A DNA stretch of 64,000 nucleotides, from assembly GCA_043800705.1 (NCBI GenBank), contig JAZDMS010000023.1, forward strand, positions 32,001 to 96,000. The letters run 5' to 3'. The DNA comes from Candidatus Altiarchaeota archaeon (GTDB lineage Archaea > Altiarchaeota > Altiarchaeia > IMC4 > SCGC-AAA252-I15). Positions 2,201 to 62,339 of this stretch are shown here, piece after piece (the stretch's first letter is position 1; each line of letters begins with the position of its first letter). The translations under genes and the position numbers were made by a program. The notes beneath the pieces are model-generated. The model saw only the letters and a program-made list of their open reading frames with translations. It did not search any database and was not told where the DNA came from.

Positions 2201-2496
2201 CTATTGTTTGACGAGGCGGTTATATGCATAAGGGCAAGACACCCTTCGGGTTTCTCGCCCTTATCAACCCTACTCTTCCGACATGCCATCGCGGATGGCA
2301 TCGTTCACTAATGTGTTTTTCTATTGTTTGACGAGGCGGTTATATGCATAGGGGCAGGCACCTTTCAGGTTCCCGCCCCTATCACCCCTACCCTCCGGTA
2401 TGGTGCCTTCGGCACCATGAAAAAATCCCGTAGACGTATGCATCGGCAGAAGGACAGGCGCCCTCGGGTTCATTGTTTGACGAGGCGGTTATATGC
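2201..2496. repeat. Three perfect copies of 25-bp ATTGTTTGACGAGGCGGTTATATGC (2203, 2323, 2472) separating two homologous double-hairpin units
   Basis: Direct reading; the third copy is the last codons (AYNRLVKQ) of ORF 2470..2871; units carry covarying stems. Confidence 0.9.
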
Positions 2497-2871
2497 GTGC
2501 AGGACGAGGACGGCCTCTTCGAGTTGGGCGATGTTTACGGTCGTCGTCTTCTGTTCTATCGCCGGCTCAAGGAGCCTGTGCTGGACGCGGAACGGGCTCG
2601 TGCCGTCCTTGATCGTGTTCAGATTGTGGGTGCTGGTGATCTGGTTCAGCCTGTCCTTCGGCGCCTTCTGGAGGTATTGGACTGCCTCCTGTAGGTTGAT
2701 GAGGTGCTGGAGCATCTCCTCCTCGCCGCCGAATGCGGTCGCCAGCTCAAGCTGCGAGTTTGTGGTCAGCCTCCTGAGCTTCATCGAGACCAGCAGGTCC
2801 TGGAACGCAATCAATGTGTCCTTCACCGAGCATTCGGCCTCTTTTCGAGGCTTGGGTTTTCCCTCATCCAT
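2470..2871 (-). CDS. Hypothetical helical protein (133 aa)
   Basis: ORF 10 nt downstream of the PMM/PGM stop, preceded by GAGGGTG; no recognisable motif. Confidence 0.6.
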   Translation of the reverse strand: MDEGKPKPRKEAECSVKDTLIAFQDLLVSMKLRRLTTNSQLELATAFGGEEEMLQHLINLQEAVQYLQKAPKDRLNQITSTHNLNTIKDGTSPFRVQHRLLEPAIEQKTTTVNIAQLEEAVLVLHAYNRLVKQ

Positions 2872-2881
2872 AATGCACCCC

Positions 2882-4228
2882 TCAGATCTTACCCTTCAAT
2901 TCCGGATTCCTGTCGAAGACTTCCCTGAATACGGCCTTCATCTCCTCCAGTTTCTTCGGGGTCTTCCCCTCGAAGCGCAGCACCAGGTGAGGGCCCGTGT
3001 TCGAAGCCCTCATCAGGCCCCATCCGTCCTTTGCCTGGACCCTGACCCCGTCCACGGTAATCAGCTCGTATTTTCCTTCGAACGCCTTCCTGACCTCGTC
3101 GACGAGGGCGAACTTCTTCTCCTCGGGGACCGTGGCCCTTATCTCAGGAGTCGAATAATATTTCGGGATGGTGTCGACTATCTCGCTCATCCTCTTTTTG
3201 GTCTTCGACAGCGTCTGGACCATCCTCGCGGTCGCATATATGCCGTCGTCGAATCCTGGGTAGTCGTCTGCGAAGAAGAAGTGGCCGCTCATCTCGCCAG
3301 CCAGGAAGGCGTGTTCCTCCTTGATCTTCTTCTTGATGAAGCTGTGGCCTGTGCGGTACATTATCGGCCTGCCGCCGTGGGCTTCTATGTCCTCCGTGAG
3401 CGCCATGCTGCACTTGACTTCGAAGATAATGGATGCGCCCTTGTTTTTCGCGAGTATTTCCCTGCTGAAGAGTGCTAGGGCCTGGTCTCCGCGGATTATC
3501 CCGCCGTTTTCGTCGACGAAGCCGGCCCTGTCGGAGTCGCCGTCGTATGCGAGGCCTATGTCGGCCTTTTCTTCCTTTACCTTCGCTATCAGGTCTTTGA
3601 GGTTGGAGTCGACCGTCGGGTCCGCGGGGTGGTTCGGGAAGTTTCCGTCAGGCTCGGAGAAGAGCTCTATGACTTCGCATCCAAGGTCGCGGAAGAGCTT
3701 CGGCGCGACAGCGCCCGCCGTCCCGTTGGCGCAGTCGAGCACGACCTTCAGCTTCCTTTTGAGTTTTATCCTGTCACTCATGTATTTGGAGTATTCCGGG
3801 AGTATGTCGCGCGCTTCGATGCTGCCCTGTCCGCTCCTGAATTTGCCCGCGTCGACTGCGGCGCCTACGGCGGTTATCTCGTCCCCGTACAGGGTCATTC
3901 CGCCTTTAATGCAGAGCTTGAATCCGTTGTATTCCGGCGGGTTGTGGGATGCGGTAAGCATGATTCCGCCGTCGAGTTTCAGGATGTAGATCGCGAAGTA
4001 CAGTGCGGGGGTCGGGACGCACCCGACGTCTATGACCTTCAGCCCCGTGGATTTCAACCCCTCTATCAGCGCCTTTGACAGCGTCGGGCTGCTTTTTCTG
4101 ACATCGCATCCGACTGCGACGGTGCCTGTGACCGTGGAGCCGAATGCCTTGCCTATCTTTAGGGCGATCTCCTCGGTGACCTCCGTGCCGTATAATCCTC
4201 TGATGTCGTAGGCACGGTAGATGCTCAT
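2882..4228 (-). CDS. Phosphomannomutase/phosphoglucomutase
   Basis: AYDIRG N-terminus, TASHNP phosphoserine loop, DGDSDR metal loop, GEMSGH, RASNT. Confidence 0.95.
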   Translation of the reverse strand: MSIYRAYDIRGLYGTEVTEEIALKIGKAFGSTVTGTVAVGCDVRKSSPTLSKALIEGLKSTGLKVIDVGCVPTPALYFAIYILKLDGGIMLTASHNPPEYNGFKLCIKGGMTLYGDEITAVGAAVDAGKFRSGQGSIEARDILPEYSKYMSDRIKLKRKLKVVLDCANGTAGAVAPKLFRDLGCEVIELFSEPDGNFPNHPADPTVDSNLKDLIAKVKEEKADIGLAYDGDSDRAGFVDENGGIIRGDQALALFSREILAKNKGASIIFEVKCSMALTEDIEAHGGRPIMYRTGHSFIKKKIKEEHAFLAGEMSGHFFFADDYPGFDDGIYATARMVQTLSKTKKRMSEIVDTIPKYYSTPEIRATVPEEKKFALVDEVRKAFEGKYELITVDGVRVQAKDGWGLMRASNTGPHLVLRFEGKTPKKLEEMKAVFREVFDRNPELKGKI

Positions 4229-5074: not shown

Positions 5075-5098
5075 TTTCAGGAATTGGAGATACTACAT

Positions 5099-7908: not shown

Positions 7909-8565
7909 TCAGATTATTCCCCGAAGTTCAGTTACTGCGGCTTTGAGCCCTTTCGGGTGCCTGAACAGGTATGAGCCTGCAACGAAGACGTCGCATCCCG
8001 CCTCGGATATTGCATTCGCGGTCTTGTCGTTGACTCCGCCGTCGACTTCTATGAGGGTTTTCAGTTTTCGGTTTTCAGTTTCCCTCTTCGCCTTCCTGAT
8101 TTTGTCGAGGACTTTCAGGTCGAATTTCTGTCCGCCGAAACCGGGGTTGACCCCCATTACCAGGACGAGGTCTAGTTGCGGCAGAAGCGGCAGAATTTTT
8201 TCGATTGGTGTTTCAGGGTTGATTGAGACACCGGCTTTGGCCCCTGCCTTTTTTATCTCATCGATGCATGCCTGTAGGTCGGTGCATGCTTCGCTGTGGA
8301 CGGTTATCAGGTCCGCCCCCGCCTTCTTGAACGCTTTGATGTAGCGGATGGGGTCGAGTACCATCAGGTGGACGTCGAAGAGGAGGTCCGATGCGGGCCT
8401 AATGGATTCGAGGACCGGTATTCCGAAGCTGATGTTAGGGACGAAGCACCCGTCCATTACGTCGAAGTGTATCCACTCTACGCCGGCAGACTTCGCGGAT
8501 TTCAGCTCCTCCCCGAGCCTTGCGAAGTCCGCGGACAGTATCGAAGCCGCCACGATCTTATCCAT
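7909..8565 (-). CDS. rpe: Ribulose-phosphate 3-epimerase
   Basis: SILSADF, HFDVMDG, DVHLM, MGVNPGFGGQ, EVDGG. Confidence 0.95.
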   Translation of the reverse strand: MDKIVAASILSADFARLGEELKSAKSAGVEWIHFDVMDGCFVPNISFGIPVLESIRPASDLLFDVHLMVLDPIRYIKAFKKAGADLITVHSEACTDLQACIDEIKKAGAKAGVSINPETPIEKILPLLPQLDLVLVMGVNPGFGGQKFDLKVLDKIRKAKRETENRKLKTLIEVDGGVNDKTANAISEAGCDVFVAGSYLFRHPKGLKAAVTELRGII

Positions 8566-11288: not shown

Positions 11289-11424
11289 GGGGATAACATA
11301 TACCCCCCCACTTTTTAAATACTCCACTGCCTTGGCGGATTCCGAAACAGGGTCCAGGACCGCCCCCATGGGTTACCGCAGGGAAACCGACGCGGATTAT
11401 AATATGTTACTCCAAGTTACTAAC

Positions 11425-19380: not shown

Positions 19381-19481
19381 CTCATCACGCGCTGGCGGAT
19401 TCCCAAAACGAATCTAGTCGGGCGAATTACTACTTTTGACTAGACTCCTTTTTATCCCACCTTTATCCTGTCCTTTTTAGG

Positions 19482-19715
19482 ATGGTCGAGACGTTCGCGA
19501 CTTCGCAGTACGAGGAGAAGTTTTTTGGGAACCTCACGCTCGCCCAGAGCCTGATGATGCTGGCTCTGTCAGTCCCCGGGGTCTTCATGGCTGCCAAAGG
19601 ATTCTCCGCCCCCATCATACTCGGCTACGGCGGATTCTGCGTCGTTGCATATGCGAGGCTGATTACCTTCGGCGAGGACCGAAGACGCAAGTCTTTCTAT
19701 TGGCCAGTGGGTTAG
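19482..19715 (+). pseudogene. Truncated duplicate of the 5' end of the PrgI-VirB4 gene
   Basis: 19482-19654 matches 22498-22670 with 9 mismatches in 173 nt (counted by eye), then diverges and stops. Confidence 0.85.
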
Positions 19716-19786: not shown

Positions 19787-20206
19787 TCACTTGAATATGT
19801 CCCGCCCGCTCTTCAAATATCTCTCTTTCTGTATTACGTCCTTCACCCTGTTCACGAGGTCGTCGTTGTCATACGGCTTTGTAATGTAGTCTTCTGAGCC
19901 TATCGCCCCCATCTTCTGGCTTAAGTCGTCAGTTTTGGCGGTTAAATAGACTATCGGTATACCCTTCATTACAGGGTCTTCCTTCATCTTAGACGCTACT
20001 GTCCACCCGTCCATCTCAGGCATCATAACATCCAATAATACGATGTCCGGCGGTGACTCAAGCATCGCCTCCAGCGCCTTTTTACCGGACGTCAATCCAA
20101 TCACTTCAAGTTTAGGCTCCCTTTTTTTAAAGGCTGACTTAACACTCGCGACTATGTCCTCGTTGTCGTCCACAACCATAACCTTACCGTCCATAAAATC
20201 CACCAT
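19787..20206 (-). CDS. Single-domain response regulator (CheY-like)
   Basis: VMVVDDN, DIVLLDVMMPEMDG, LTAK, ITKPY. Confidence 0.95.
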   Translation of the reverse strand: MVDFMDGKVMVVDDNEDIVASVKSAFKKREPKLEVIGLTSGKKALEAMLESPPDIVLLDVMMPEMDGWTVASKMKEDPVMKGIPIVYLTAKTDDLSQKMGAIGSEDYITKPYDNDDLVNRVKDVIQKERYLKSGRDIFK

Positions 20207-20242
20207 TCAATGCTATTATCAATTTAATTATACCCCTATATA

Positions 20243-22195
20243 TCACATGGGAAGTGTGAATTTAACAGTAAGGCCCTTCCCAAGGCCATCGCTTTCAACC
20301 CAAATCATCCCTCCGTGTTTTTCTATGATGCGCTTGCATATGGCCAAGCCGAGTCCTGCCGAATGATTATGTCTGCTTGAGTCGACCTGGTAGAATTCGC
20401 TGAAAAGGAATTTAATTTTGTCTTTTTCGACACCTATCCCCCCATCCGACACGCTCACCTCGACTTTTCCCTCTCTCACAACCGCCTGGAAGCTTATGTT
20501 CCCGCCTTCCGGCATGAATTTCAGGGAGTTATTTACAATGTTGTTGAACACCTCGACAATCCTTAGCCTGTCGGCCACAACGGCAGGTATGCCCTCTGGG
20601 ATTCTGTCAACGAATCTTATGTTGGTGTCCCTGAACGCTTTTTCATTGTTTGTTATCACCTCCTCGACCACTTCGCGAAGACTCATGGGTCTCATATTGA
20701 ATTTCACAGAACCCGAGTCGAGCCTGGCTAAATCAAGGGTGCTCACCACCAGGTCCCTCATGTAGTAGATGTTCTTCATCGCAATCTCGAATAGCCTCCT
20801 ATCCTCCTCGCCATCCAGTTTCGTCTTCAGGTCCGGGAGAATCGATATCAGCGGGGTCAACGGCGTCCGCAGGTCGTGGCTCAGCTGGTTAACGAACTGG
20901 GTCTTCGTGTCCAAGAGTTCCTGAACCCGGTTCTTCTCCACCTCAAGCTGTTTGGTGCGTTCAACAACCCTCTCCTCGAGTTTTTCCGTATACTCCTGTA
21001 TCTTATCCTCCTTCTCCCTCAGTTCGGTGAAGTCCTCTATCGTCTCGATTACCGCCATCAACCCATCCTGGGGATCCCGTATGGGCGCAGCCGTGAATGA
21101 CAGATACTTTGCCCCCTTCATCCTCCAGCCTTCGGCGTGGTATGCCCCCTGGATGAGCTTTGATTTACTGTGGTTCTCATACAACGCAGGTATCCTCCCC
21201 ACATCACCGTCTACTAACACGTCAGCCAAGGTCGGGTGATATTCCCCATAGAAGGGCATCCAATGGTTGCATGTGCCGATTATGTCTCCCTTCTTCAAAC
21301 CGGTTAACTCCTCCATGGCATTGTTCCAGAACATCACCCTATGCCTCCCATCTATGACGAACAAGGGGATGCTTGAGCAATTAATCACCATCCTGGTCAG
21401 CTCCTCCGCAGCCTTCCTCTCCGTTATATCCTGCACTAGCCCGTCATAGGATATGATATTCCCCCCGCCGTCAAGGTGTTGTACCGCCGTGTTCCTAATC
21501 CATCTGATTCTCCCATCTTTTCGCACGATGCGGTGTTCCAAGGGCTTAACTATCTCCCCCGATACAATCCGGCTACTGTATTCCCTCACACTCTCCCTTT
21601 CCTCCTCAGGCACCATCTGTATCCAAAGGTACGGGTTCTCCATGAACTCGTCGGCCGTATAACCCGTGACTGCGACCGAGGCGTGGCCATGGATTGTCTC
21701 AACCGGCCTGCCCCCTTCAACAACCACGGTGTATATGTAGTCTGTAACTGACTCTATGATGTGCCTGTATCTCTCCTCGCTTTCTTGGATTTCCCTGCTC
21801 AATACACCCTCGACGTCCCTCTGGGTTATGATTCCGGCAATCCTCCCGTCTTCGACTATGGGCAGCCTCCTGAAACCCCCCTCAGACATTATCCTGGATG
21901 CTTCGCTGATTGTGGTATCCGGGTTGACTGTCACCACCGGAGACTTCATCACATCCCCTGCCTTCACCTCGGACGGATTTTTGTTCTCCGCGACTATTTT
22001 ATCTGAAAGGTCCCTCTCAGTCAATATCCCCAAAATCCTCCCGCCTGAGGCGACGATGACAGACCCGATGTTTTTATCAGACATCAGTTTCGCAGCTTCC
22101 TGGACGCAGGATCCAGACTCGACAGTGTAGACATTATGCGACATAATGTCCCCAACGACCTTAAAAAACCCCGCCCTTTTACTGATACTGTCCAA
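20243..22195 (-). CDS. Sensor histidine kinase CBS-CBS-PAS-PAS-HisKA-HATPase
   Basis: CBS pair (GILTERD, GIITQRD), PAS/PAC, H-box SHDLRTPL, N-box NNSLKF, G boxes DGGIG and GLGLAI. Confidence 0.92.
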   Translation of the reverse strand: MDSISKRAGFFKVVGDIMSHNVYTVESGSCVQEAAKLMSDKNIGSVIVASGGRILGILTERDLSDKIVAENKNPSEVKAGDVMKSPVVTVNPDTTISEASRIMSEGGFRRLPIVEDGRIAGIITQRDVEGVLSREIQESEERYRHIIESVTDYIYTVVVEGGRPVETIHGHASVAVTGYTADEFMENPYLWIQMVPEEERESVREYSSRIVSGEIVKPLEHRIVRKDGRIRWIRNTAVQHLDGGGNIISYDGLVQDITERKAAEELTRMVINCSSIPLFVIDGRHRVMFWNNAMEELTGLKKGDIIGTCNHWMPFYGEYHPTLADVLVDGDVGRIPALYENHSKSKLIQGAYHAEGWRMKGAKYLSFTAAPIRDPQDGLMAVIETIEDFTELREKEDKIQEYTEKLEERVVERTKQLEVEKNRVQELLDTKTQFVNQLSHDLRTPLTPLISILPDLKTKLDGEEDRRLFEIAMKNIYYMRDLVVSTLDLARLDSGSVKFNMRPMSLREVVEEVITNNEKAFRDTNIRFVDRIPEGIPAVVADRLRIVEVFNNIVNNSLKFMPEGGNISFQAVVREGKVEVSVSDGGIGVEKDKIKFLFSEFYQVDSSRHNHSAGLGLAICKRIIEKHGGMIWVESDGLGKGLTVKFTLPM

Positions 22196-22497
22196 GCAGA
22201 CCCCCTATGGATAATAATCAACGGTGAGTGATAAAAACCAAAATACTCCGACATGCCCTCACTTGTAACGTGCATAACCTGGCCCTGCTGAAGTCTAGAC
22301 CATGAATATAGCCCCGCCTTTCTTCTTCAAGCCGTCGACGGTTACAGTACGGGCTAAATCATCCCTACTTTTGGCCGCAGTATCTGATTTTTTCCCATAT
22401 TCCTGTAAAAGAATAATGCCGTGCGGTGTCCGCTCTATTACTACCTTTTACTGCACCTTTTTTTAACCTATTGGGCAGGTATCCTCTTGGGATCGGG

Positions 22498-25400
22498 ATG
22501 GTTGAGACGTTCGCGACTTCGCAATACACGGAGAAGTTTTTTGGGAACCTCACGCTCGCCCAGAGCCTGATGATGCTGGTTCTGGCCGTCCCCGGGGTCT
22601 TCATGGCAGCCAAGGGATTCTCCGCCCCCATCATACTCGGCTACGGCGGATTCTGCGTCGTTGCATACGCCGGCATCGCATTCTACGGCCTCGACGAGCA
22701 GGCGCTGCTTTGGCTCGGGTTCGCCTCGTCGAGGAGGAGGCTCCTTTGGAAGACGAAGGAGATGGAGGAGTTCATCGGCGTACAGGACATAGACACAAAC
22801 GTGGTGTTCACTAGGGACGGCCGGCTCCTATCTGTCGTGAAGGTTCTGCCGAAGGATCTCGGAGGCCTCGGGGAATCCGACATAGAGCGCGTTCTTGCGG
22901 GATATGGCGTGTTCCTCAACGAATTGAGCACGAACATCCAGATCATCATGTCCTCGACGGAGATAGACGTCGAAGGCTACCTCCAGAGGCTGAAGGAGAA
23001 GGTGCTCCTTTGCGGGAAGCCTCAGCGGCTTGCGTACTTCGAGCACTTCGCATCCTTCATGCGCGCCGTGGTGGAGTGCAAGACCGTCACCGACAGGGAC
23101 TATTACATTGTCGTCACCCAGCCTGAAGCCCGCGATCGGAGACGGGCGCTGGAGGACCTGGACACGAAGACCCGCAACATCGTCGCATCACTGGCGGATG
23201 CGGGCATCGACTGCGAAAGGCTCGAAACCGAAGCCCTCATCAGCTTCTTCACCAACTTCTACACCCCGAGATTCAGCCTCATTGGCGACCCATGGACTGC
23301 AGTGACCTTCCACGACAATGTCCGGGGGATGCTGGAGGCGGAGTCGTACCTGGAGCCGTTCAAGGCAGGGCGGCGTTTTACGCGCGGCGGCAGGGACTTT
23401 ACCCGAACGCCGAGGGAGCGGAGGACATCCGTGATCGAGGAGCTGATGCCCTCGTCTGTCGACATATTCAAGGACCATGCCGAGGTGGAGAAGTTCCACA
23501 GAGTCCTCTTCACTGTCCGGTTCCCAGCCTCAGTCCACCCGGGCTGGCTGACGAAACTCATACGGCAGCCCATAGACTTCGACATAGTCTTCCACATACA
23601 CCCCCTCAGCCAGAAGACCAGCGTCGACTACCTCCAGCACGAGATAACGAAGCTGGAGACGGACGTCACCACCAAGGAAAGGGAGGGCCTCATCGTCGCC
23701 GAGCGCGACAGGGTCAACCTGCAGCGGGTGAGGGACCTCCTCGGCAGGGTGTCGCGCGACGAGGAGAAATGCTTCGACGTCGCCCTCTACGTCAACGTCA
23801 AGGCCTACACGCTCAAGGAGTTGGACCTTGCGGTGATGCGGATCAAGGACGTCATCGAGGGGATGAACGCCCATGTGAAGGTGGCCAACTGGGAGATGGC
23901 GGACGCGCTCAGAAGCTGCTTCCCCCTGGCCGAGGACAGGCTCGGCGAACGCAGGGACAAGCTTTTTCCATCCAGCGCCGTAAGGGACTCCTATCCGTTC
24001 ATCCTCTCCAGCCTCGAAGACCGGGGACATGGAGCGGTCGTCGCGGGATACAACCAACTCAACGGGATACCCGTTCTCCTTGACATTTTCCGGCAGCCGA
24101 ATCCACACGTCCTGGTCCTCGGAAGCTCGGGCAGCGGCAAGTCCTTCCTAGTGAAGAAGCTAGTCCTGGCCGAGGCGATGCAGGACGTCGACATATTCGT
24201 CATCGACCCCCAGGGCGAATACGAGAAGGCGATATCGGCGATGGGCGGCCACGTCATACGCCTGGCCCAAGACTCCCCCTCAGTCATCAACCTCTTCGAC
24301 ATAATGGGGGGGACATACGACGAGCGCAAAGGCAGCATAAAGGCGTTCTTCAACATCATCCGCCAGGACATGGATGATAATCTGGCGGGATCTGCGGTCG
24401 GGATAGTCGACAAGATGATAGACAACGCCTACCGGAAGGCGGGGATATACGCCGACGACCCGTCGACGTGGGATCGGCCTGCGCCCACTTTCAGCGACGC
24501 ATACCAGGCCCTAAGCCAGTTCGCTTCGGAGTCGAGCTCGAACGCGGAAAAGTGGAAGAAGACCGCTGCGGAGGCGCTCCTTTCGCATCTGAGTCCGTTC
24601 GTCCATGGAGACCTCCGCTACCTCGACCGGGCAACGAGCGTCGATCTGAGGGGGAAAAACATCATCTCCTTCGACATTTCACAGGCCAGCCCGTTCAAGC
24701 CCCGCGAGAGGGCTCTTGCGCTCTTCATAGTATTCGACCACATATATTCCCACGTCAGAAGGCAGGAGAGGCTAAGGAGGAAGATGGTAGTCGTCGACGA
24801 GGCGTGGAGCGTCTTCGAAAACAACCAGGACGACCTCGGCCCGATAGTCCGCACAGGCCGCAAAGACAACCTGTCCGTCGTGATGATAGACCAGAACGTC
24901 GAAGACCTGCTCACAAAGGACGGGGACGGACGGGCCAGGGGGCACGTCATCCTCAACAACACCTCGACGAAGTTTATCCTCCGGCAGGAGGCTGCATGCC
25001 TGACGCTCGTGTCCGAGAAGTTCGCGCTGACGGAGAGCCAGAAGGCGTTCATCCAGACTGCAGGCCCGGGCGACGTGCTCCTGCTGACGCCTTCCGTGAA
25101 GCTCCCCCTGTTTGTGCTCGCCAGCCAGGAGGAGAAGAAGATGCTGTCCACAAGCCCGGAAGAGCACGCCAAGCAGCATGCGCCGAAGGAGTTGTCCGAA
25201 TTCGACAAGTCGAAGGACCTGGTCCTGCCGCAGCGCATCCTCTCAAACGAGGAGATGCGGCGGCTCAGGGCTGAAGGATACGTCCAGGTCGCAGACGCAG
25301 GCCTTGGCGTTGAGCCTTCCGTATACTTCGTCAAGGGGCAGGAGGGCGAGAATCCCCTCCATGCCCTGCGGAAAATACTGATATTCAAGGAGATCGAACG

Positions 25401-25740
25401 CCTGAGGAAACTGACGGGAATCCCGTCAGAAGAGCTGAACCTGAGGATGCACTCCCGGCTCATGCCGGACCTCACAGTCTGCCTCCCCGGCGGCTTTGCC
25501 GCCGCGATAGAGGTACTTGAGGCCGATGACTTCGAAACAGGGAACGCCGACTCGGACAACAAGATAAGACGGCTGGGAAACTACTCCAAAACCGTGCTTA
25601 TAGCCTTGGACGAAGATGTCAAGGCGGCGGCGGCATCAAGGGGGTATGGGGACGTCATTTTGTCTCATCAGGCGGTATCCGCCTTGGAGGACCTGTTCGG
25701 GGTGGGGAAAGCGCATGGAACCAGAGAAGCTACTGGATGA
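22498..25740 (+). CDS. PrgI-like membrane domain fused to VirB4/TraE-like ATPase
   Basis: N-terminal YTEKFFGNLTLAQ plus two TM (PrgI-like); Walker A GSSGSGKS, IDPQGEY, Walker B VVVDEAW, GRKDN, ILNN. Confidence 0.8.
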   Translation: MVETFATSQYTEKFFGNLTLAQSLMMLVLAVPGVFMAAKGFSAPIILGYGGFCVVAYAGIAFYGLDEQALLWLGFASSRRRLLWKTKEMEEFIGVQDIDTNVVFTRDGRLLSVVKVLPKDLGGLGESDIERVLAGYGVFLNELSTNIQIIMSSTEIDVEGYLQRLKEKVLLCGKPQRLAYFEHFASFMRAVVECKTVTDRDYYIVVTQPEARDRRRALEDLDTKTRNIVASLADAGIDCERLETEALISFFTNFYTPRFSLIGDPWTAVTFHDNVRGMLEAESYLEPFKAGRRFTRGGRDFTRTPRERRTSVIEELMPSSVDIFKDHAEVEKFHRVLFTVRFPASVHPGWLTKLIRQPIDFDIVFHIHPLSQKTSVDYLQHEITKLETDVTTKEREGLIVAERDRVNLQRVRDLLGRVSRDEEKCFDVALYVNVKAYTLKELDLAVMRIKDVIEGMNAHVKVANWEMADALRSCFPLAEDRLGERRDKLFPSSAVRDSYPFILSSLEDRGHGAVVAGYNQLNGIPVLLDIFRQPNPHVLVLGSSGSGKSFLVKKLVLAEAMQDVDIFVIDPQGEYEKAISAMGGHVIRLAQDSPSVINLFDIMGGTYDERKGSIKAFFNIIRQDMDDNLAGSAVGIVDKMIDNAYRKAGIYADDPSTWDRPAPTFSDAYQALSQFASESSSNAEKWKKTAAEALLSHLSPFVHGDLRYLDRATSVDLRGKNIISFDISQASPFKPRERALALFIVFDHIYSHVRRQERLRRKMVVVDEAWSVFENNQDDLGPIVRTGRKDNLSVVMIDQNVEDLLTKDGDGRARGHVILNNTSTKFILRQEAACLTLVSEKFALTESQKAFIQTAGPGDVLLLTPSVKLPLFVLASQEEKKMLSTSPEEHAKQHAPKELSEFDKSKDLVLPQRILSNEEMRRLRAEGYVQVADAGLGVEPSVYFVKGQEGENPLHALRKILIFKEIERLRKLTGIPSEELNLRMHSRLMPDLTVCLPGGFAAAIEVLEADDFETGNADSDNKIRRLGNYSKTVLIALDEDVKAAAASRGYGDVILSHQAVSALEDLFGVGKAHGTREATG

Positions 25741-35360: not shown

Positions 35361-35496
35361 AATACTATGATTCTTGGGCAGAATAAAAATGGCTGCCTCC
35401 CGACGGCATGGGCCGCCGACCCGCCTACATATCATATGTACGCAGGGTTTATGCGCATCGGACCCTGTTTTTATCTGGCGATATGTTATATTTACG

Positions 35497-38400: not shown

Positions 38401-38598
38401 CGTCTGTTGATATTGGTCAACATGGCCGGTGACAAGGTCAACGTCGTCGTCGCATCCAGCGGCAAGGCGAACGCCGGAGACGTGTGCAAGAGGCTGTGCG
38501 CCCTCCTTGGCGGCGGAGGCGGTGGGAAGCAGGCGCTGGCGATGGGCGGCGGCAACGCGAAGGACGCTGAACGGATACTGGAAGAATTAAATTATTAA
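35497..38598 (+). CDS. alaS: Alanine--tRNA ligase (archaeal type) with internal repeat insertion
   Basis: CKNC zinc knuckle, RYPVVCRW, GITGRH, DMGAGLER, ADHTR, editing HHTATH and ACGGTH, C-Ala GGGGGG. Confidence 0.95.
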   Translation: MVLDFRALKARMKPEFHANFEKYYPAKSLASVGFKRKVCKNCGRGFWSAAERDVCDEPVCSGGYRFIGEKLTRKRFAYKEAWDEYVKVFGKWGYVPIERYPVVCRWYEDLYFVNAGVNDFQPYVISGEVEPPAPAVLEPQFCLRFQDIDSVGITGRHYSGFIMVGQHTFNTAKRHVFFKDEGILQIHEFLTKGLGIKAEEVVYHEDVWAGGGNFGPSMEFFCRGLELGNQVYMQYKVLPDGTSQELKTRVIDMGAGLERWSWFSQGNPMSYDSTFPQVMKHLYKVSGVKPDEKLMLKFGNYAGLLSIDDVDDINSVWGRISKELGIDMAKLKDEVYRMRALYAIADHTRSLLVAIHDGALPSNVGGGYNLRTLLRRCWSLNDEFGLDIEVEKVFEEHIGEFGKWYTDLKETGSLFDIVAVERERYKENQAKGRKLIEKEKDMTVAKMVELYDSHGIAPDVMQKITGIQIPDDFYKKVEERHEKQVKTDEVKEEKDLTGIPLTKLLYYEDSEKLDFEAELLSMSGGLGGDEGHVILDKTLFYPGGGGQETDKGHLQIGSNRYDVVSVEKKKGGIIAHKINNFSRLWGDDSRVDDKVKGYVDKRRRLQLVQHHTATHIVNASARTVLGPHIWQAGAHKSEKFSRLDITHYKAVSQEELKKIEERANEIVREAHPVEINWMRRNDAEGKYGMRLYQGGAVPGTKLRIVSIPGIDTEACGGTHLKNTKEAGRIKLLSAKRIQDGVVRLEFTAGEASEREIREDAEKFILVKIHLDEFLQQQIRIQKKLQRDLEPFMQMQRRMAEIMGPAMQMQKRLAESLEPVERMQEQLRQNLEPLETSFKIIAEKVAPQMEESARIFSVPKEKLGETINRFTTEINQMEEKIMGLGGEPPSDIDLDDTPALGISGTSRYLFDRWKEDRKILEKLQAEASGDLVSDIEAKFTESNVVKHVTSGLMVKALTEAANAAVSKPGRLLILVNMAGDKVNVVVASSGKANAGDVCKRLCALLGGGGGGKQALAMGGGNAKDAERILEELNY
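37816..38067 (+). repeat. 42-bp (14-aa) degenerate tandem repeat inside alaS
   Basis: Units start at 37858 LEP, 37900 MGP, 37942 LEP, 37984 LEP, 38026 VAP. Confidence 0.8.
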
Positions 38599-38650
38599 TA
38601 CATTGCACTACCCTAATAATTTATATATTAGTACATCGTAATGTACTAAT

Positions 38651-39934
38651 GTGGATATCTCTCGGTTGGAGTTGTTCAACGAATGGTGGACTACGGGATC
38701 GGTGCGTAAGGAGCTCACAAAAGAGTATAGGCGGCCATTATTTGACGAGGTTTTGAAATACCTGAACGACCGGCAGATCATCCTCATATACGGTCTTAGG
38801 AGGGTGGGAAAGTCCACACTCATGTATCAGATAATACAGCATCTCCTAAAGCAGGGAATTGGAGCGGATAGGATATTCCGGTTCTCATTCGACGACACAG
38901 AGGCCCAACTGGATGAGGTCCTGAGGGTTTTTGAGCGGGAGAAGCTAAGGAAGAACTTCGAGCAAGCCGATAGAGTATACGTCTTCTTCGACGAGATCCA
39001 GAAGACCGCGGACTGGCAGAACAAGCTCAAGATATTCTACGACCTCTACCCCAACATAAAATTTTTCATCTGCGGCTCAGCATCCATCAGCATACAGAAG
39101 AAGGCTAAGGAAAGCCTGGCTGGACGGACATACGACTTCCATATGAAGCCGCTCACTTTTGCTGAATTCCTCAAACTCAAAGGCATAGATGCGAAGTTCG
39201 ACCACTGGAAGACCTACAAACGGACTGTAGCCCCATCATTCTACGACCACCTGCGAAAAGGCGGCTTCCCGGAATTGACAGACGAAACAGACGAGGAAAA
39301 GATAAGAAGCTACGTGAAAAACAACGTGATAGACAGGATACTGTACGTTGACCTGCCGGCCGAGTTCGGCCTCAAGGATCCCCAGCTGCTCAAGACCATA
39401 GTCGAGTTGACGGCAGACCATCCGGGCATGATAGTCAACTACGACGCCCTGAAGAACGACCTGAAAAGGAACAAGCAGACCATTATGAGCTACTTCACGT
39501 ACCTGGAGTACGCCCTCATACTCAAGCTTGTGGCCAACATACGGCCCGGCTTCCTGTCGACGTCACGGAAGATGAGGAAGGCGTATCACACCAGCACTGC
39601 GTTCCCGCTCTCTATTGCAAGAAACCCGGACGACACGCTCATGGGCAGAGTCGTGGAAAACCTGATGGTTCAGGAGCTTGATGCGGAATATTACTTCCGC
39701 GACAAAGGCTTTGAAATAGACTTCATAATAAAAAAGGGCGGGAAGACCATCCCCATAGAGATAAAATACGGCAAACCGGACGCCTCAAAGTTTGCCAAAG
39801 CGCTGGCGAGAATTCAACTGGACAATGGGATAATCGTCACAAAAGACCAGGACCAAGAAACGGAAGTAGACGGCAGAAAAATCAAAATGATCCCGGCCTG
39901 GGCGTTCATACTCTTCAAGGAAAAATTCATCTGA
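38651..39934 (+). CDS. AAA_14 + DUF4143-type ATP-binding protein
   Basis: GLRRVGKST, FFDEIQ, CGS, ESLAGR, GGFPE, EIDF..PIEIK nuclease-like C-terminus. Confidence 0.92.
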   Translation: MDISRLELFNEWWTTGSVRKELTKEYRRPLFDEVLKYLNDRQIILIYGLRRVGKSTLMYQIIQHLLKQGIGADRIFRFSFDDTEAQLDEVLRVFEREKLRKNFEQADRVYVFFDEIQKTADWQNKLKIFYDLYPNIKFFICGSASISIQKKAKESLAGRTYDFHMKPLTFAEFLKLKGIDAKFDHWKTYKRTVAPSFYDHLRKGGFPELTDETDEEKIRSYVKNNVIDRILYVDLPAEFGLKDPQLLKTIVELTADHPGMIVNYDALKNDLKRNKQTIMSYFTYLEYALILKLVANIRPGFLSTSRKMRKAYHTSTAFPLSIARNPDDTLMGRVVENLMVQELDAEYYFRDKGFEIDFIIKKGGKTIPIEIKYGKPDASKFAKALARIQLDNGIIVTKDQDQETEVDGRKIKMIPAWAFILFKEKFI

Positions 39935-40003
39935 ACAGGCGATCGGCCCTTTCTTCAGCACACGATGCTCTCCGCAAAATGGATACAGAGCGGCGTCGTT
40001 AGG

Positions 40004-40046
40004 CGCGAAGGACGCTGAAAGGGTTCTGGGCGAGTTCAAGCCTTGA
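40004..40046 (+). pseudogene. Displaced second copy of the alaS 3' end
   Basis: CGCGAAGGACGCTGAA identical to 38556-38571; continues RVLGEFKP* versus RILEELNY* in alaS (same length). Confidence 0.8.
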
Positions 40047-40047
40047 A

Positions 40048-40395
40048 TTATTGCTCCGCCTCATTACCGTCAATCATGTTCATGGCCATGCCGACCCCCA
40101 CATTTCCGGCATCCTGGAAGAGAAAGTTGCCGGCGGTTTTCATAAGATCCATGACTAAACTAATCCCCGTCATTATGGGATTTTTATTAAATTGCGTCAT
40201 CATCTGGTTGGCAAATTCCTCGGCCTGGTGCGTCTGGTCCCCTTCCCCTGGCATAAAGGAAGAGCCGACTATCGGCCCCCTGCCCCTCATGAAGGAATTG
40301 CCCAACAATCCGGTGAGCGTCGCCAACGGCGACTGCTGCTCCATCTGGGGCGACGCAGCTTCCCTGGGTTCAATCATCCTTTGGGCCATTCTCAC
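40048..40395 (-). CDS. Hypothetical Met-rich protein
   Basis: ORF abuts 40396..40704 on the same strand. Confidence 0.5.
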   Translation of the reverse strand: MRMAQRMIEPREAASPQMEQQSPLATLTGLLGNSFMRGRGPIVGSSFMPGEGDQTHQAEEFANQMMTQFNKNPIMTGISLVMDLMKTAGNFLFQDAGNVGVGMAMNMIDGNEAEQ

Positions 40396-59101: not shown

Positions 59102-59114
59102 TATCTTAGCCCTC

Positions 59115-59134
59115 CTAGCCGAAAAGTCGGCTAG
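59115..59134 (-). promoter_or_regulatory. Leader hairpin of rpl1 (CUAGCCGA-CUUU-UCGGCUAG) between a TTTAAA box and the SD GGAGG
   Basis: Perfect 8-bp stem abutting the SD sequence. Confidence 0.45.
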
Positions 59135-59241
59135 TACAACGGGTTTTAAAGAATAAGCAATACTCCTATAAAAGCGCGCATTATCCCCGTGTAATCAACG
59201 ATTTAAGCTCGCAACGCCATATTACTATACAAGGTATATTC

Positions 59242-59850
59242 ATGAGTCCGACGACAAACGAGATCGTCCAGGCCATTCGCGACCCCGCACTTCTGGAACA
59301 GGTGAAGCAGGTCGAGATCGACCAGCTCAGGAAATTGAAGACCGGCGGGGAAGGCCGGCAGACGACGGAACCCACGAACCTGAACGACTTCCTCATGGAC
59401 CTCCATGGCGGGGGGATGGCCAAGGAGCTTAACCAATTCTTCGTGAGGATGACCGATGCCCAGGGTTCATTGCAGAAGCTGGCCAAGCGCCTGAGGGGTC
59501 CTCTCAAGGAGCAGGCAAACAAAGGCATCGAGATGTTCTCGCCGGAAGTGGTGGCCCGGACGGATAGCGGCATCATCATAAAGTTGACGGCTCAACGCGG
59601 GAAGCTGGAGACGTCCTCCAATTTCCACCCGAAAGAGGGATTCGCAGCCGGAAATGCATTGACGCCCATCGGAAAAAACGAGCGGGTCATGTGGTCTTTG
59701 GCTGTCCAAAAAAGCGAGATGATGACGCTCGACGGAGTGAAGGAGAAGGTATTGGCGGGCATAACCGGATACAAGGAGAATGCCCTTGCCGGGTTGATGT
59801 TGGTTTCAGAGGCGTTGGAGGGGCGGATCTGCCCCCCGCAGAAAAAATGA
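59242..59850 (+). CDS. Hypothetical protein
   Basis: 202-aa ORF with upstream AT-rich promoter-like region. Confidence 0.65.
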   Translation: MSPTTNEIVQAIRDPALLEQVKQVEIDQLRKLKTGGEGRQTTEPTNLNDFLMDLHGGGMAKELNQFFVRMTDAQGSLQKLAKRLRGPLKEQANKGIEMFSPEVVARTDSGIIIKLTAQRGKLETSSNFHPKEGFAAGNALTPIGKNERVMWSLAVQKSEMMTLDGVKEKVLAGITGYKENALAGLMLVSEALEGRICPPQKK

Positions 59851-59948
59851 ACGAAAAGGACGAACTCAAGCGGATAAAGGCCGAAGTATTGGAGACCCTG
59901 AAGCTGGCGGACGCGTTCGTCGAGAAACACTGCAAAAAGGGGAAATAG
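59847..59948 (+). CDS. Putative 33-aa peptide
   Basis: ATGA overlap with the upstream stop; MNEKDELKRIKAEVLETLKLADAFVEKHCKKGK. Confidence 0.4.
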   Translation: MNEKDELKRIKAEVLETLKLADAFVEKHCKKGK

Positions 59949-60001
59949 GTCCTATGCCCGGAAGTAGAGCACCGTCAGCCTTTCCCTTCCCCTGTGATAT
60001 G

Positions 60002-60358
60002 TCACGGCAGCCAGGAGTTCGCCGTCTCGTGGACCTGGCCGATCTCCAGCGGGAATCCCCCGAAGGTCGGTTCATCGGGGTTGACGACCTGTATCTTGGC
60101 GGGTTTCCCCACGTTGTTGGGTTCAGTACTAACGCCGCAGTCGACTCCAGCAGCCCTGACTTTTTTCCAGTCCTCCTCCGACGGCACCTTGTCGGCAGGC
60201 AATGCCGCCTTCGGCAGGGGGACGTCCCTCATACCTGCCCTAGACAAAGCCGTCTTGAGAGCCTTCAGCTCCGGGCCCAGGCTGGCGTCTGCTACCTTAA
60301 CTGGCGGTACCGAAGGATTCGACCCTAAATTTGCTTCCCTCTCGACCATATCAATCAA
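60002..60358 (-). CDS. Hypothetical protein
   Basis: 118-aa ORF, no motif. Confidence 0.45.
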   Translation of the reverse strand: MIDMVEREANLGSNPSVPPVKVADASLGPELKALKTALSRAGMRDVPLPKAALPADKVPSEEDWKKVRAAGVDCGVSTEPNNVGKPAKIQVVNPDEPTFGGFPLEIGQVHETANSWLP

Positions 60359-60397
60359 TGGGGAGCATCCGAATACATCCTAAAGCCTGAGTCGGGA

Positions 60398-60471
60398 TTG
60401 TCGCTTTCCCGCTGTGGGTGCCTAGCCTTTCGCTACAGCCTTCTCCCCCTTGATCTCTTCAATGTGGCCGA
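60398..60471 (-). pseudogene. Degenerate duplicate of the rpl11 3' tail
   Basis: Reads GHIEEIK-GEKAVA--KG*APTAG versus rpl11 GHIEEAKKEEKAPAAAEGAAPAAE; TCGGCCACATYGAAGAG 16/17 identical. Confidence 0.75.
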
Positions 60472-60477
60472 TGGGAT

Positions 60478-61590
60478 TCACTTCTTCTTTTTCAGAAGGA
60501 GCATTAGCTGGCCGTCAAGGTTGTCGCCGGCGTATGATTTGCCGGTCAGATGCCCCCTGTTCAGCCCGTATCTCATTATCTCGAATCCGAGGTCCTCGAT
60601 CTCGTCCCTTGCCGGCATCTCCCTCATATGCAGTAGCAGGTCTATGGACATTCCGTACATAATCGCCGGTTCGATTACGCAGAAGCCGCCCACTTTGAGT
60701 ATCTCGTGGGCGTTCGCCAGAGCCATCCTCGCCTGGCCTTCCCGGACCTGCACAGTCGCGCCTCCCGGGCTCCCGATGAATCCCTTCATACTGACTGCGG
60801 AGGACTTCATTTTGCCGAATTCGGAGCGGAACCTTTCAGGGAACGCCTCTTTGGTGGGATCGGCGTCTAGGACCCTCACACCCTCCCCATTTGCATAGGC
60901 CAGCAGCCTCGCGTTCACGTCGACGCCGATGCCCTCCGCACCTATCCCTTCGCCGCTTATGTAATTCACATATGAGGCTATGTTGCAGCCGAAGTCCACT
61001 ATCCTCTCCCCCCGGAGGGATCCCATGGCTCCTACCAGGACCCGATGTATGAGTTCATACGACGGGGCTGAATTGCAGTCCTCCCCAGTACGATCCTTGA
61101 ATAGTTCTCTGGCCCTCCTGGAATAATCGTCTTCAAGGGGTATCATTCTCCTATCCCAAGCCGGGAAGTGGATGGGTTCAGGCAGCAGCCGGTAATTTTC
61201 CGGCTGGGGCCCATCTGCAAGCCGGTCAAAATAGGCTCCTGCGCGTCCGATGAAATTGCTTCTGTCAGGGGCATATCCCCCCCTGCCATTGACCTCCAAT
61301 GTGCGAGCGAAGCTTTCAGGAAAATTCTCCGTGTTTGCGAGCGAAAAGGCCCCCCCGGAGAAAAGCTCCCTCGCCCCGGCTAGGTTGTCAGGGCTAAGCT
61401 GCCTTGAAAGGGCATACAGGCAAAACAGTTTTTCCCCTGGGGACTTCCTACCGAATCCCTTATATGACGGCGGACCGGTTGATTTGACCGGTTGAGCCGG
61501 CATCAGAGCTGAAAATGGAGCATGTTGTAGTCCCTGCGGATAGTGCTCTTTCCTCTTATGGGCCCATTCTGGCATAAACAATACCCGCAT
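60478..61590 (-). CDS. Class I SAM-dependent methyltransferase-like protein (start uncertain)
   Basis: IVDFGC, IGVDVN, HEILKVGG. Confidence 0.7.
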   Translation of the reverse strand: MRVLFMPEWAHKRKEHYPQGLQHAPFSALMPAQPVKSTGPPSYKGFGRKSPGEKLFCLYALSRQLSPDNLAGARELFSGGAFSLANTENFPESFARTLEVNGRGGYAPDRSNFIGRAGAYFDRLADGPQPENYRLLPEPIHFPAWDRRMIPLEDDYSRRARELFKDRTGEDCNSAPSYELIHRVLVGAMGSLRGERIVDFGCNIASYVNYISGEGIGAEGIGVDVNARLLAYANGEGVRVLDADPTKEAFPERFRSEFGKMKSSAVSMKGFIGSPGGATVQVREGQARMALANAHEILKVGGFCVIEPAIMYGMSIDLLLHMREMPARDEIEDLGFEIMRYGLNRGHLTGKSYAGDNLDGQLMLLLKKKK

Positions 61591-61658
61591 CCGCGATTAA
61601 AATACGAAACCCACGGTGCGGGAAAAATAACGGGAAAAAATCGAAGAAGGGAAGAGCA

Positions 61659-62339
61659 TTACTTCTTCTCCTTCTTGCCTTCCGGCTTCTTATCCGCGGC
61701 TGGCTTCTTGTCGCCTTCGGCCTTCTTCTCGCCTTCCGCCGCGGGTGCCGCGCCTTCTGCTGCCGCTGGAGCCTTCTCCTCCTTCTTGGCCTCTTCGATG
61801 TGGCCGAGGAGCTTCACGGTCTTGGCTTCCTTGTGGACCAGCTTCGGCATCGTCTGCGTCTTGCCGGATATGTAGTCGTCTAGTATGTTCGTCCTCAGCG
61901 CCTCCTGCATCTCCTTTGGTGTGAGGCCGTTTATGGAAATCCTCAGGCTCTGGCAGCTTCCCACCACTTCCTTAACCGCGCCTTTGAGGTCTTTTGCGAG
62001 TGTGGATCCCATCTTGCTCTTGGCGACTTCCAGTACCTGGTTGAAGCCGAGGTCTCCGATGAGCTCCTTTCCGCCGCCTCCCTTCTCGGCTCCCAGCGCC
62101 TTGACTATAAGAGCCGATGTCGGGGGGCTGCCGACTATGATATCGAACTTCTTCGTCTCGGGATCGACTTGGACTTCGACCGGGACCTTCATACCCCGAA
62201 ACGATGCCGTCATCTTGTTGATCTCTTCGACCACTTTTCCTGCGTTGACGCCAAGCGGACCCAATGCGGGACCGAGCGGCGGACCCGGCGTCGCTGCGCC
62301 GCCTTCGACCATTACCTTGACTGAAGCCTTCTTACTCAT
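61659..62339 (-). CDS. rpl11: 50S ribosomal protein uL11 with long charged C-terminal tail
   Basis: GGAATPGPPLGPALGPLG, GMKVPV, SPPTSALI, KEVVGSC. Confidence 0.95.
   Translation of the reverse strand: MSKKASVKVMVEGGAATPGPPLGPALGPLGVNAGKVVEEINKMTASFRGMKVPVEVQVDPETKKFDIIVGSPPTSALIVKALGAEKGGGGKELIGDLGFNQVLEVAKSKMGSTLAKDLKGAVKEVVGSCQSLRISINGLTPKEMQEALRTNILDDYISGKTQTMPKLVHKEAKTVKLLGHIEEAKKEEKAPAAAEGAAPAAEGEKKAEGDKKPAADKKPEGKKEKK

Follow-up and report, generated by a model that had tools for sequence, protein, structure and literature searches.

The window analysed here, a stretch of 64,000 nucleotides from a Candidatus Altiarchaeota archaeon (genome G000, contig JAZDMS010000023.1, positions 32,001 to 96,000), includes ORF133, a VirB4-like gene, alaS and the gene for ribosomal protein L11, and a terminus of each recurs in DNA nearby (Table 1). 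The terminus that belongs to the intact gene is referred to as the live end, its copy as the scar, and genes lying between them as cargo. Window alignments show the duplication to be real at all four loci, far above chance expectation, and the alignments, local E values and shuffles (Smith-Waterman scores against 2000 shuffles per scar) place each one where the original prediction had put it; none of the 2000 shuffles reached the score of the alaS scar, nor that of the ORF133 scar. The four repeats have no sequence in common, as had been claimed, and the target genes likewise have none.

ORF133, which has no Pfam match, has a homologue of 38% identity in G001 at the same place after the PGM gene. 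Its last 8 codons and stop are present three times (2469-2505, 2320-2356 and 2200-2236), two successive scars being stacked behind the live gene. Copies 2 and 3 are 87% identical over 77 nt (local E 7.9e-16) and a 25-nt exact match links a scar to the live end (E 1.8e-4). These copies had been thought to surround accessory DNA; however, they enclose no gene, only two hairpin modules of family E2, the module at 2226..2290 showing compensatory changes with respect to the second. The same hairpin family is found at C37, C36, C29 and C22 of G000.

The VirB4-like protein (Pfam TraG P-loop, AAA_10 and DUF87; PDB match to the VirB4-like 4ag5, E 3.5e-17) has orthologues of 51-65% identity in genus relatives. 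Segments 19426-19654 and 22437-22670 align over 234 nt at 85% identity (E 1.8e-66), with a core of 175 nt at 94% and an exact run of 2 nt from the inner breakpoint. Identity within the block is uneven: 163/175 coding positions are identical (93%) as against 36/60 in the upstream/promoter part (60%; Fisher p 1.3e-8), and promoter motifs are common to copy A, copy B and G001. Copy A is probably the displaced native 5' end. It remains an intact 77-codon ORF with its own promoter motifs, so that the loss of function ascribed to all such copies cannot be asserted in this case. The regulator/kinase pair between the copies has a GC3 of 0.61-0.66, compared to 0.80-0.83 in the flanking genes. It is absent from the VirB4 site in 4/4 genus relatives, and in G003 the site is empty, with Lrp 84 nt from VirB4.

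The alaS scar, directly after the AAA_14/DUF4143 ATPase gene, consists of two collinear pieces, 39968-40009 matching 37690-37731 (79%, E 5e-4) and 40004-40054 matching 38556-38606 (73%, E 2e-3, stop codon in register), which meet at a short CGAA identity (microhomology). The scar ends in EFKP followed by the stop, like genus relatives, whereas live alaS ends in ELNY; its last residues are closer to the genus consensus than those of the live end. The locus lacks conserved synteny among relatives. The mosaic structure proposed for alaS is not supported, in that its identity profile against relatives resembles the profile among the relatives themselves, and no crossover point in the anchor gene can be demonstrated from this comparison.

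L11 is matched over its full length in 4/4 genus relatives, in three of which (G002, G003 and G004) it is directly followed by L1. The L11 scar (60398-60480 versus 61726-61816) has a Smith-Waterman score of 34, whereas the best of 2000 shuffles scored 16. It had been taken as the far edge of the cargo but lies mid-way in a 2.45-kb insert: the block at 59176..60397 is also missing in those three genomes, and the spacer beyond it aligns by eye with the one right after their L11 stop. The cargo gene orf370 (GC3 0.64) had been labelled a methyltransferase, a label that rests on sub-threshold Pfam matches (E 0.17-0.19).

Table 1. Coordinates of the duplicated gene ends and associated features in the window
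Feature	Position	Strand	Evidence or remark
Outermost ORF133 3'-end scar (last 8 codons and TAG stop)	2200..2236	-	97% identical to 2320-2356
Hairpin module, family E2; stem end abuts inner edge of scar 2200-2236	2226..2290	.	Fold -20.5 kcal/mol
Middle ORF133 3'-end scar	2320..2356	-	Alignment
Second E2 hairpin module, abuts scar 2320-2356	2346..2410	.	Fold -28.6 kcal/mol; three-tier stem like first module
ORF133, resident gene of unknown family, 3' end triplicated	2470..2871	-	ORF list
Copy A: promoter region and first 58 codons of VirB4-like gene, continuing as 77-codon ORF (19482..19715)	19426..19656	+	
Cargo: response regulator (19787..20206) and CBS-PAS histidine kinase (20243..22195)	19787..22195	-	Pfam
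Copy B (promoter and 5' end), continuous with intact VirB4-like ATPase gene (ATG 22498, 1080 aa)	22437..25740	+	
alaS, intact, true start uncertain	35374..38598	+	Pfam; live scar counterparts 37690-37731 and 38556-38606
Cargo: AAA_14/DUF4143 ATPase gene	38651..39934	+	Pfam E 2.8e-34 and 3.4e-19
alaS scar in two pieces: residues 771-786 joined, out of frame, to 1060-1074 and stop	39968..40054	+	
Native L11-L1 spacer (L1 leader with hairpin), kept beside L1	59102..59175	-	Aligned by eye
Further inserted block between scar and native L11-L1 spacer	59176..60397	.	ORFs 59242..59850 (+) and 60002..60358 (-), no family
Scar of the L11 tail (about codons 170-205) with two indels and an in-frame stop	60398..60480	-	Starts at orf370 stop codon
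Cargo: orf370, orphan, weak SAM-methyltransferase-like motif	60478..61590	-	Sub-threshold Pfam
Ribosomal protein L11 gene, genus-typical 90-residue Lys/Glu/Ala-rich tail	61659..62339	-	Pfam; live scar counterpart 61726-61816

A genome-wide comparison of gene ends with nearby intergenic DNA, the check suggested together with the original prediction, gave 28 direct pairs in 23 loci of G000 (2.0 Mb), a clear excess over the inverted control (1 pair) and the non-local control (2 matches in twice the search space). Scar loci recur in related genomes: 3 in 310 kb of G003, 10 in 375 kb of G024 and 14 in 400 kb of G026, which is closed. None was found in 400 kb of G016. The duplications measure 25-258 nt, different at every locus, and the inserts 60 nt to 3.6 kb. 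Besides 3' ends, 5' ends and tRNA genes are duplicated, with stacks of tRNA-end copies in G000. Inserts carry hairpin modules, two-component pairs, ATPases, toxin-antitoxin pairs and Fic genes, with a cargo GC3 of 0.61-0.69 versus 0.73-0.83 in adjoining genes. Empty sites in relatives, also suggested as a check, are those described above for the two-component pair and the L11-L1 insert.

Live ends and scars encode nearly the same residues and differ mainly at silent sites. Over the 18/24 loci readable in frame, a sample biased towards pairs that can still be aligned, Sd is 91.5 and Nd 60.5, giving pS 0.41, pN 0.069 and pN/pS 0.17; eight loci have pS 0.3-1.3 with pN no higher than 0.10, and several 5' copies differ by silent changes only. 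Together with the contrast between coding and promoter identity at VirB4, this ratio makes the copies resemble alleles whose divergence took place in separate lineages rather than fresh in-place duplications and implies, as far as the sequences tell, a related donor gene behind the difference between live end and scar. At alaS and L11 the scars are not enriched in silent differences (pN/pS 0.48 and about 2, respectively), and decay after an origin of any kind would fit them.

The junctions carry no att-like core, the exact match from the inner breakpoint being at most 10 nt in 13/16 diverged loci. A chimeric scar on contig C25 of G000 was joined at an ATCAAC microhomology. The foot of a hairpin abuts the scar in 6/18 short inserts and the live side in 0/18, against a background of 22/1168, and hairpins are absent from the junctions of 10/10 gene-sized inserts. 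The same hairpin families occur at unrelated targets, including tRNA genes, and related modules are common to several families of the archaeal order; they probably stop end-trimming or mark the site of a break. As predicted, the cargo is devoid of integrase and transposase: Pfam detected no recombinase among all cargo proteins of the window and 6 cargo proteins from elsewhere. G000 encodes one Xer-sized tyrosine recombinase and two DDE transposases, both of the latter outside cargo, and gave no matches to TnpB, Y1 transposases (including the RAYT type) or reverse transcriptase (RVT_1). G001 and G003 yielded no tyrosine recombinase. In G016 there are two larger tyrosine integrases (400 aa) and no scar in 400 kb. 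A transposon with target-site duplication was rejected because the lengths vary at every locus and the cargo has no transposase, and a diversity-generating retroelement because RVT_1 is unmatched in G000 and 5' ends and tRNA genes are duplicated too.

Insertions with empty sites in relatives, allele-like divergence of the copies, boundaries without a core and cargo free of recombinases are thus the observed characters of these loci. The explanation to which we incline, with the balance of probability slightly on its side, is anchor-dependent illegitimate recombination with relatives, which would bring in a replacement gene end and cargo and displace the native end. DNA of a diverged relative, having entered by a route that can only be surmised, would pair by homology with a conserved gene, the anchor. 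A homologous crossover is presumed to take place inside this gene, and the other end of the incoming DNA would be joined illegitimately, independently of an integrase, inside the recipient's copy of it. The incoming piece would consist of its own version of the gene terminus and adjoining DNA (a hairpin, toxin-antitoxin genes, an ATPase, a two-component pair); since it would supply its own terminus, the gene would remain whole. The live end would presumably be the foreign one, and the recipient's own terminus would be pushed past the insert and then decay. In short inserts the donor-side breakpoint would coincide with the foot of one of the conserved hairpin modules. Allele-like divergence of the duplicated ends is what recombination of this kind with a relative predicts. 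A search within the species for a genome of the donor type, or for one in the state before insertion, found none, and a metagenome scan gave 2 loci, both uninformative.

The recombination idea of the original prediction is therefore retained in part. The inserted DNA, the cargo without recombinase and the allele-like ends speak for it; the dedicated capture system, the role of VirB4 and relatives as the source of the cargo are not supported. The link to VirB4/VirB11-like machinery lacks support in that the VirB4-like gene is present in 40/41 genomes searched, whatever their scar load, including G016 with no scar in 400 kb. As to the source, orf370 has a homologue in 0/60 relatives and the best match of the kinase covers just the kinase core, at 51-52% identity. 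It has also been considered that the hairpin modules could act as the ends of cassettes of a new class that manage without an integrase, in which a copy of the host gene terminus would serve as homing anchor for host homologous recombination and the other side would be joined in a hairpin-dependent manner; this proposal seems rather improbable.

The geometry of the loci is also that of a target duplication. Insertion in place with a long and variable duplication, caused by staggered breaks, replication template switching or a mobile hairpin element, would yield copies identical at the outset, selection keeping only the events that span a gene terminus. The 100% identical copies at 3 loci elsewhere in the genome fit this account and are not explained by a diverged donor. 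Moreover, the live end and scar are mutually nearest in ABCE1 (93% identical, versus at most 75% to genus members) and in the C1 gene (87% versus at most 62%), which also fits in-place duplication, and the hairpin families recur at unrelated targets with their foot on the scar side only. However, a dead copy acquiring replacements at the silent rate should show a pN/pS of at least about 0.5, well above the observed 0.17; the eight loci of high pS and low pN, the poorly conserved VirB4 promoter beside a well-conserved coding part and the gene-sized inserts without junction hairpins also argue against it. No transposase family is known to make such duplications. In-place insertion is unlikely, although with an appreciable chance of being right. 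Decayed or satellite integrative elements, whose integrase was lost or lies elsewhere and whose att site carries a foreign gene-end copy, would account for replacement ends with mainly silent differences and for the stacked tRNA-end copies. Their probability is distinctly small in view of the cargo without integrase, the scarcity of recombinases, the two integrases of G016 beside no scar in 400 kb, the lack of an identical core in 13/16 diverged loci and targets without common sequence.

Retention of the copies for a present function, as leader ORFs, small membrane proteins or RNA decoys, would explain their conservation at the protein level, and VirB4 copy A, which retains promoter motifs, a start codon and 77 codons of open frame, as well as the silent-only divergence of several 5' copies, agrees with it. 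In contrast, a start codon and any link to a frame are missing from the 3' copies, an in-frame stop interrupts the L11 scar, which also contains indels, and the alaS scar has undergone a frameshift and an internal deletion, all of which makes this reading very unlikely. Strain variants placed in series during assembly can hardly be the cause. G000 is indeed a 43-contig MAG, and one match in G050 is a true scaffolding artefact beside a run of N; yet the pattern recurs in three relatives, among them a closed genome, which all but excludes an assembly artefact. The same architecture and related hairpins appear in four independent assemblies, including a one-contig genome, and the copies are diverged, some with indels, and set in unique sequence.

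Individual events of this type are already known, with parallels in e14/icd and rhs displacement; what is unusual is their frequency with no integrase in sight. The elements e14 and phage 21 integrate into the 3' end of E. coli icd and leave the icdC pseudogene, a silently differing replacement gene end being a known signature of such integration. The present loci resemble it in the silently diverged replacement end and the native end left as a remnant. However, e14/icd integration depends on an integrase and involves an identical core and an insert the size of a prophage, whereas here there is no integrase, no core and only 60 nt to 3.6 kb of DNA. REP/BIME-type intergenic hairpin repeats of E. 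coli are join-points of illegitimate recombination, and the low-copy intergenic hairpin families described here likewise lie exactly at rearrangement junctions. They differ in belonging to other sequence families, in the absence of a RAYT-type Y1 transposase match in G000 and in having modules common to families of the order.

Homology-facilitated illegitimate recombination (HFIR) is mostly accompanied by deletion of recipient DNA. In transformable bacteria, an illegitimate join combined with a single homologous anchor adds foreign DNA independently of any integrase (de Vries & Wackernagel 2002; Prudhomme et al. 2002; Meier & Wackernagel 2003, as cited in PMC5361080). The resemblance lies in foreign DNA at sites empty in relatives (VirB4 and L11-L1) and in microhomology joins in G000, the latter at secondary events only. 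Unlike in these bacterial experiments, the recipient gene end survives as a duplicate, and the host is an uncultivated archaeon in which DNA uptake is presumed. HFIR is the mechanism proposed in the same paper for C-terminal displacement at rhs, CDI and T6SS effector loci, where a new 3' end and a downstream gene displace the old 3' end, which remains, and repeated events build stacks (Jackson 2009; Kirchberger 2017, PMC5361080). The two successive displaced 3' ends behind ORF133 recall the stacks portrayed there. However, those loci are described as polymorphic toxin genes under diversifying selection, whereas here housekeeping genes such as alaS, L11 and ABCE1 serve as targets, promoter-bearing 5' ends are also affected and the copies encode nearly the same protein. 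A variable toxic tip with its cognate immunity gene, as in rhs and T6SS, is not seen at these loci, where the copies encode the same residues.

If anchor-dependent recombination is the correct reading, the scars would document how archaeal lineages that have diverged recombine in nature, several families of one order showing 10-35 detectable events per Mb, and would provide a countable marker of gene flow for unculturable organisms. Small accessory modules could then enter beside essential genes without an integrase, and the conserved hairpin modules would stand out as candidate break/join sites. Were the cassette proposal true, hairpins, toxin-antitoxin pairs and small operons would be spreading through several families of the order and possibly in other uncultivated lineages.

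All four gene-end duplications of the original prediction, at the 3' end of ORF133, the 5' end of the VirB4-like gene, the 3' end of alaS and the tail of L11, are recovered by self-comparison of the window, which covers positions 32001-96000 of contig C14 in a 2.0-Mb MAG of 43 contigs with 87.6% completeness. Local significance, taken from self-comparison of a 20-kb stretch, is E = 7.9e-16 and 1.8e-4 for the ORF133 copies, 1.8e-66 for the VirB4 repeat, 2e-3 and 5e-4 for the two collinear pieces of the alaS scar (the extra copy of the gene terminus lying beyond the insert, as opposed to the live end of the intact gene) and 5e-4 for the L11 scar. For each of L11, alaS and ORF133, none of 2000 shuffles reached the Smith-Waterman score of the scar. 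Across the whole window no Rfam family attained its gathering score, and ARAGORN found no tRNA.

The predicted recurrence of such events extends to the whole genome. Gene calling relied on a simple scorer of codon usage, which gave 1856 genes in this genome (87% coding). Self-comparison of each 20-kb stretch was by blastn (word 8, +1/-1 scoring, E <= 0.01), and direct pairs of a gene terminus and an intergenic copy were counted. The 2.0 Mb scanned here hold 23 loci (28 pairs; 11.5 per Mb) against one inverted pair, a count that leaves out copies themselves called as genes, such as the displaced VirB4 copy and the L11 scar. A non-local control with twice the search space, in which each stretch was set against a distant one, gave two such matches. 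Six genomes, all of one class, were scanned: the genus relative G003 has 3 loci in 310 kb, G016 of the same family none in 400 kb, G026 of another family, a one-contig genome, 14 in 400 kb, G024 of another family 10 in 375 kb, and G050 of another order 2 in 400 kb, one of them flanking a run of N. Inverted pairs number five in G026 and none in the other four relatives. Elsewhere in this genome the cargo includes DUF2283, a DUF3368/UPF0175 pair, a Fic gene and a DUF6498 membrane protein.

In-frame reading was possible at 18 of 24 loci, four gapped loci and two without a called gene being left out. Live end and scar show there 91.5 differences at 221 silent sites and 60.5 at 880 replacement sites (pS 0.41 and pN 0.069, ratio 0.17), in a sample biased to pairs still alignable. 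A dead copy decaying in place is expected to show a pN/pS of at least about 0.5. Eight loci combine a pS of 0.3-1.3 with a pN of at most 0.10. To judge from these substitutions, the copies look like two alleles that diverged under selection in separate lineages. The alaS scar (pN/pS 0.48) and the L11 scar (about 2) lack this allele-like signal and look simply decayed. At three loci live end and scar are identical, and for two genes they are each other's nearest sequences in a three-way comparison with genus orthologues that covered alaS and three other genes.

The VirB4 repeat takes in some 60 nt of promoter together with the 58 N-terminal codons of a VirB4-like ATPase of 1080 aa (Pfam TraG P-loop, AAA_10 and DUF87; PDB 4ag5, E = 3.5e-17). 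Its two copies bracket genes for a response regulator and, by Pfam, a CBS-PAS histidine kinase, both on the opposite strand. Identity is 163/175 in the coding part versus 36/60 in the promoter, which also carries a 5-nt indel (p = 1.3e-8), and 7 of the 12 coding differences fall at third codon positions. The upstream, displaced copy shares promoter motifs with the live gene and with the genus relative G001. It also has a start codon and an uninterrupted frame of 77 codons for the VirB4 N-terminal membrane segment, and could yield a small membrane protein. The gap between Lrp and VirB4 measures only 84 nt in G003 and ~290 nt in G002; in G001 and G004 it is occupied by other genes, and neither of these two spacers showed an end scar. 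The spot is thus variable, and the kinase pair is an insertion. When metagenomes were scanned with the first 400 aa of VirB4, two loci were returned, 65% and 95% identical, neither of which gives upstream context, the latter being cut at the contig start. The VirB4/VirB11-like machinery had been proposed as a possible feed for gene capture. This part of the prediction is not supported: a VirB4-like gene is present in 40 of 41 genomes irrespective of scar load, and nothing ties it, or the T2SSE-type ATPase of the window, to the scars.

L11 bears a 90-residue charged tail in all four genus relatives. The scar corresponds to about codons 170-205, contains an in-frame stop and two indels, and begins at the stop codon of the cargo gene orf370. 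L1 directly follows L11 in G002, G003 and G004, where the site is empty, and other DNA follows L11 in G001. The native L1 leader is kept beside L1, so the scar lies in the middle of a 2.45-kb insert and at least two events are recorded.

In the alaS scar, which follows an AAA_14/DUF4143 gene, residues 771-786 run out of frame into residues 1060-1074 and the stop codon, with a CGAA identity at the join. The site must therefore once have held 0.9 kb or more of the alaS 3' region, whose middle was lost later. The scar end (EFKP before the stop) resembles the ends in G001 (EFQP), G002 (NFKP) and G003 (RFNP); that of the live gene is ELNY. The alaS flanks show no synteny to G001 or G003, and the identity profile reveals no clear sign of the mosaic originally claimed for this gene. 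The 67-residue alaS insert of repeated Met/Gln/Arg-rich motifs is absent from all four genus relatives. The ORF133 locus has no cargo gene and comprises two units, each made of a spacer, a hairpin module of the low-copy E2 family and a duplicate of the gene's final 8 codons.

Between two genes that are adjacent in G001, G003 and G004 the window contains a further, probably lineage-specific insert some 5.5 kb long; no end scar was detected there at E <= 0.01.

Locations of inserts, hairpin modules and neighbouring features (G000, genome under study; window, positions in the 64-kb stretch)
Feature	Location	Remarks
Three tandem paralogous genes	window 8558-11369, minus strand	311-330 aa; account for direct repeats 8833/9756 and 9356/10288
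Putative lineage-specific insert	window 12099-17125	1554-aa and 124-aa ORFs between N-terminal 92 codons of gene at 11014 and UDP-glucose dehydrogenase gene
Displaced VirB4 5' end	window 19482-19715	
T2SSE-type ATPase	window 28822..30576	
alaS 67-residue insert	window 37780-38010	residues about 805-877; direct repeats at 37870-37939 fall within it
Native L1 leader	window 59102-59175	
Lrp-VirB4 spacer, G001	L016 6268-7081	methyltransferase-like ORF
Lrp-VirB4 spacer, G004	L017 3461-4586	Cys-rich secreted-looking ORF
Second VirB4-like locus	G000:C15:55206-58350	split into ~300 aa and ~770 aa, the form present in most relatives of the order
Chimeric scar	G000 C25:22060-22155	first 14 codons of gene at 25685 and last 20 codons of gene ending 21253, joined via shared ATCAAC; between two opposite-strand gene blocks
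Duplication around run of N	L105 (G050:C4) 17879-18088	exact 55 nt on both sides; scaffolding artefact, not a biological scar
ABCE1 orthologue	G003:C25:106977-107577	matches as two overlapping pieces in different frames; suggests frameshift or sequencing error near codon 40
tRNA-flanking hairpin modules	G000 C23:260-877	two tRNA-copy/hairpin units in tandem
tRNA-flanking hairpin modules	G000 C5:61012-61470	
tRNA-flanking hairpin modules	G000 C35:49905-50371	
tRNA-flanking hairpin modules	G000 C42:25268-25732	
tRNA-flanking hairpin modules	G000 C22:58733-59190	

The exact match from the inner breakpoint is at most 10 nt in 13 of 16 diverged loci, and there is thus no att-like core. In short inserts the scar-side end is a hairpin of one of a few low-copy families (E1-E4). 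Under a strict test (perfect stem of at least 6 bp within 3 nt of the scar) such a hairpin occurs on the scar side of 6/18 short inserts, on the live side of 0/18 and at 22/1168 random intergenic edges; by eye, 14/18 have one within 8 nt. None of ten gene-sized inserts, among them those at the VirB4-like gene, alaS and L11, has a junction hairpin. Related modules are present in G026 and G024. Modules also lie beside tRNA genes with a duplicated promoter and 5' end: E2/E3 modules flank these genes, and after each module the tRNA promoter and first 10-27 bases are repeated. A full-text literature search combining Altiarchaeota, hairpin and duplication found nothing relevant among the papers listed. 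Pyrobaculum C/D sRNA genes overlap gene ends and have MITE-like copies; the available part of that account does not describe gene-end duplications (PMC6009581).

Several other origins can be set aside. Tandem duplication followed by deletion is rejected, as no cargo has a second copy, and the 37-nt ORF133 repeat is not a mere repeated promoter, since on contig C37 the same hairpin family is found next to an unrelated gene-end copy of 92 nt. A diversity-generating retroelement is rejected for lack of a reverse transcriptase, and CRISPR-like or casposon-type integration because of the varying duplication lengths. The genome encodes one 283-aa tyrosine recombinase and, on other contigs, two DDE transposases; TnpB, Y1 transposase and reverse transcriptase were not found in it. 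No tyrosine recombinase was found in G001 or G003, and the scar-free G016 has two of about 400 aa. Ku was not found in any of five genomes, which leaves classical end-joining without a handle. Because MAGs often miss mobile elements, such absences are weak evidence.

Anchor-dependent illegitimate recombination with a diverged relative fits these data best. Incoming DNA would pair with the conserved gene body, the donor's diverged gene end and neighbouring DNA would enter as a non-homologous tail, and joining of this tail within the recipient gene would displace the native end. This model explains why the copies look like alleles, why their homology ends at the stop codon or fades within the promoter, why core and integrase are absent, and why copies are stacked at ORF133. 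It leaves the identical copies unexplained, and no donor has been sampled. Cargo GC3 is below that of neighbouring genes. Of the proposed capture of genes from relatives through gene anchors, the anchoring would fit the allele-like copies; relatives as the source of cargo are not supported: orf370 has a homologue in none of 60 relatives and the kinase no close homologue among the relatives searched.

The e14/icd case is among the closest parallels to the gene-end scars. So too are homology-facilitated illegitimate recombination and the C-terminal displacement described for rhs/T6SS loci (PMC5361080). In view of these parallels the type of event is known; what is new is the density of the scars, their integrase-free spread across several archaeal families and the marking of junctions by hairpins.
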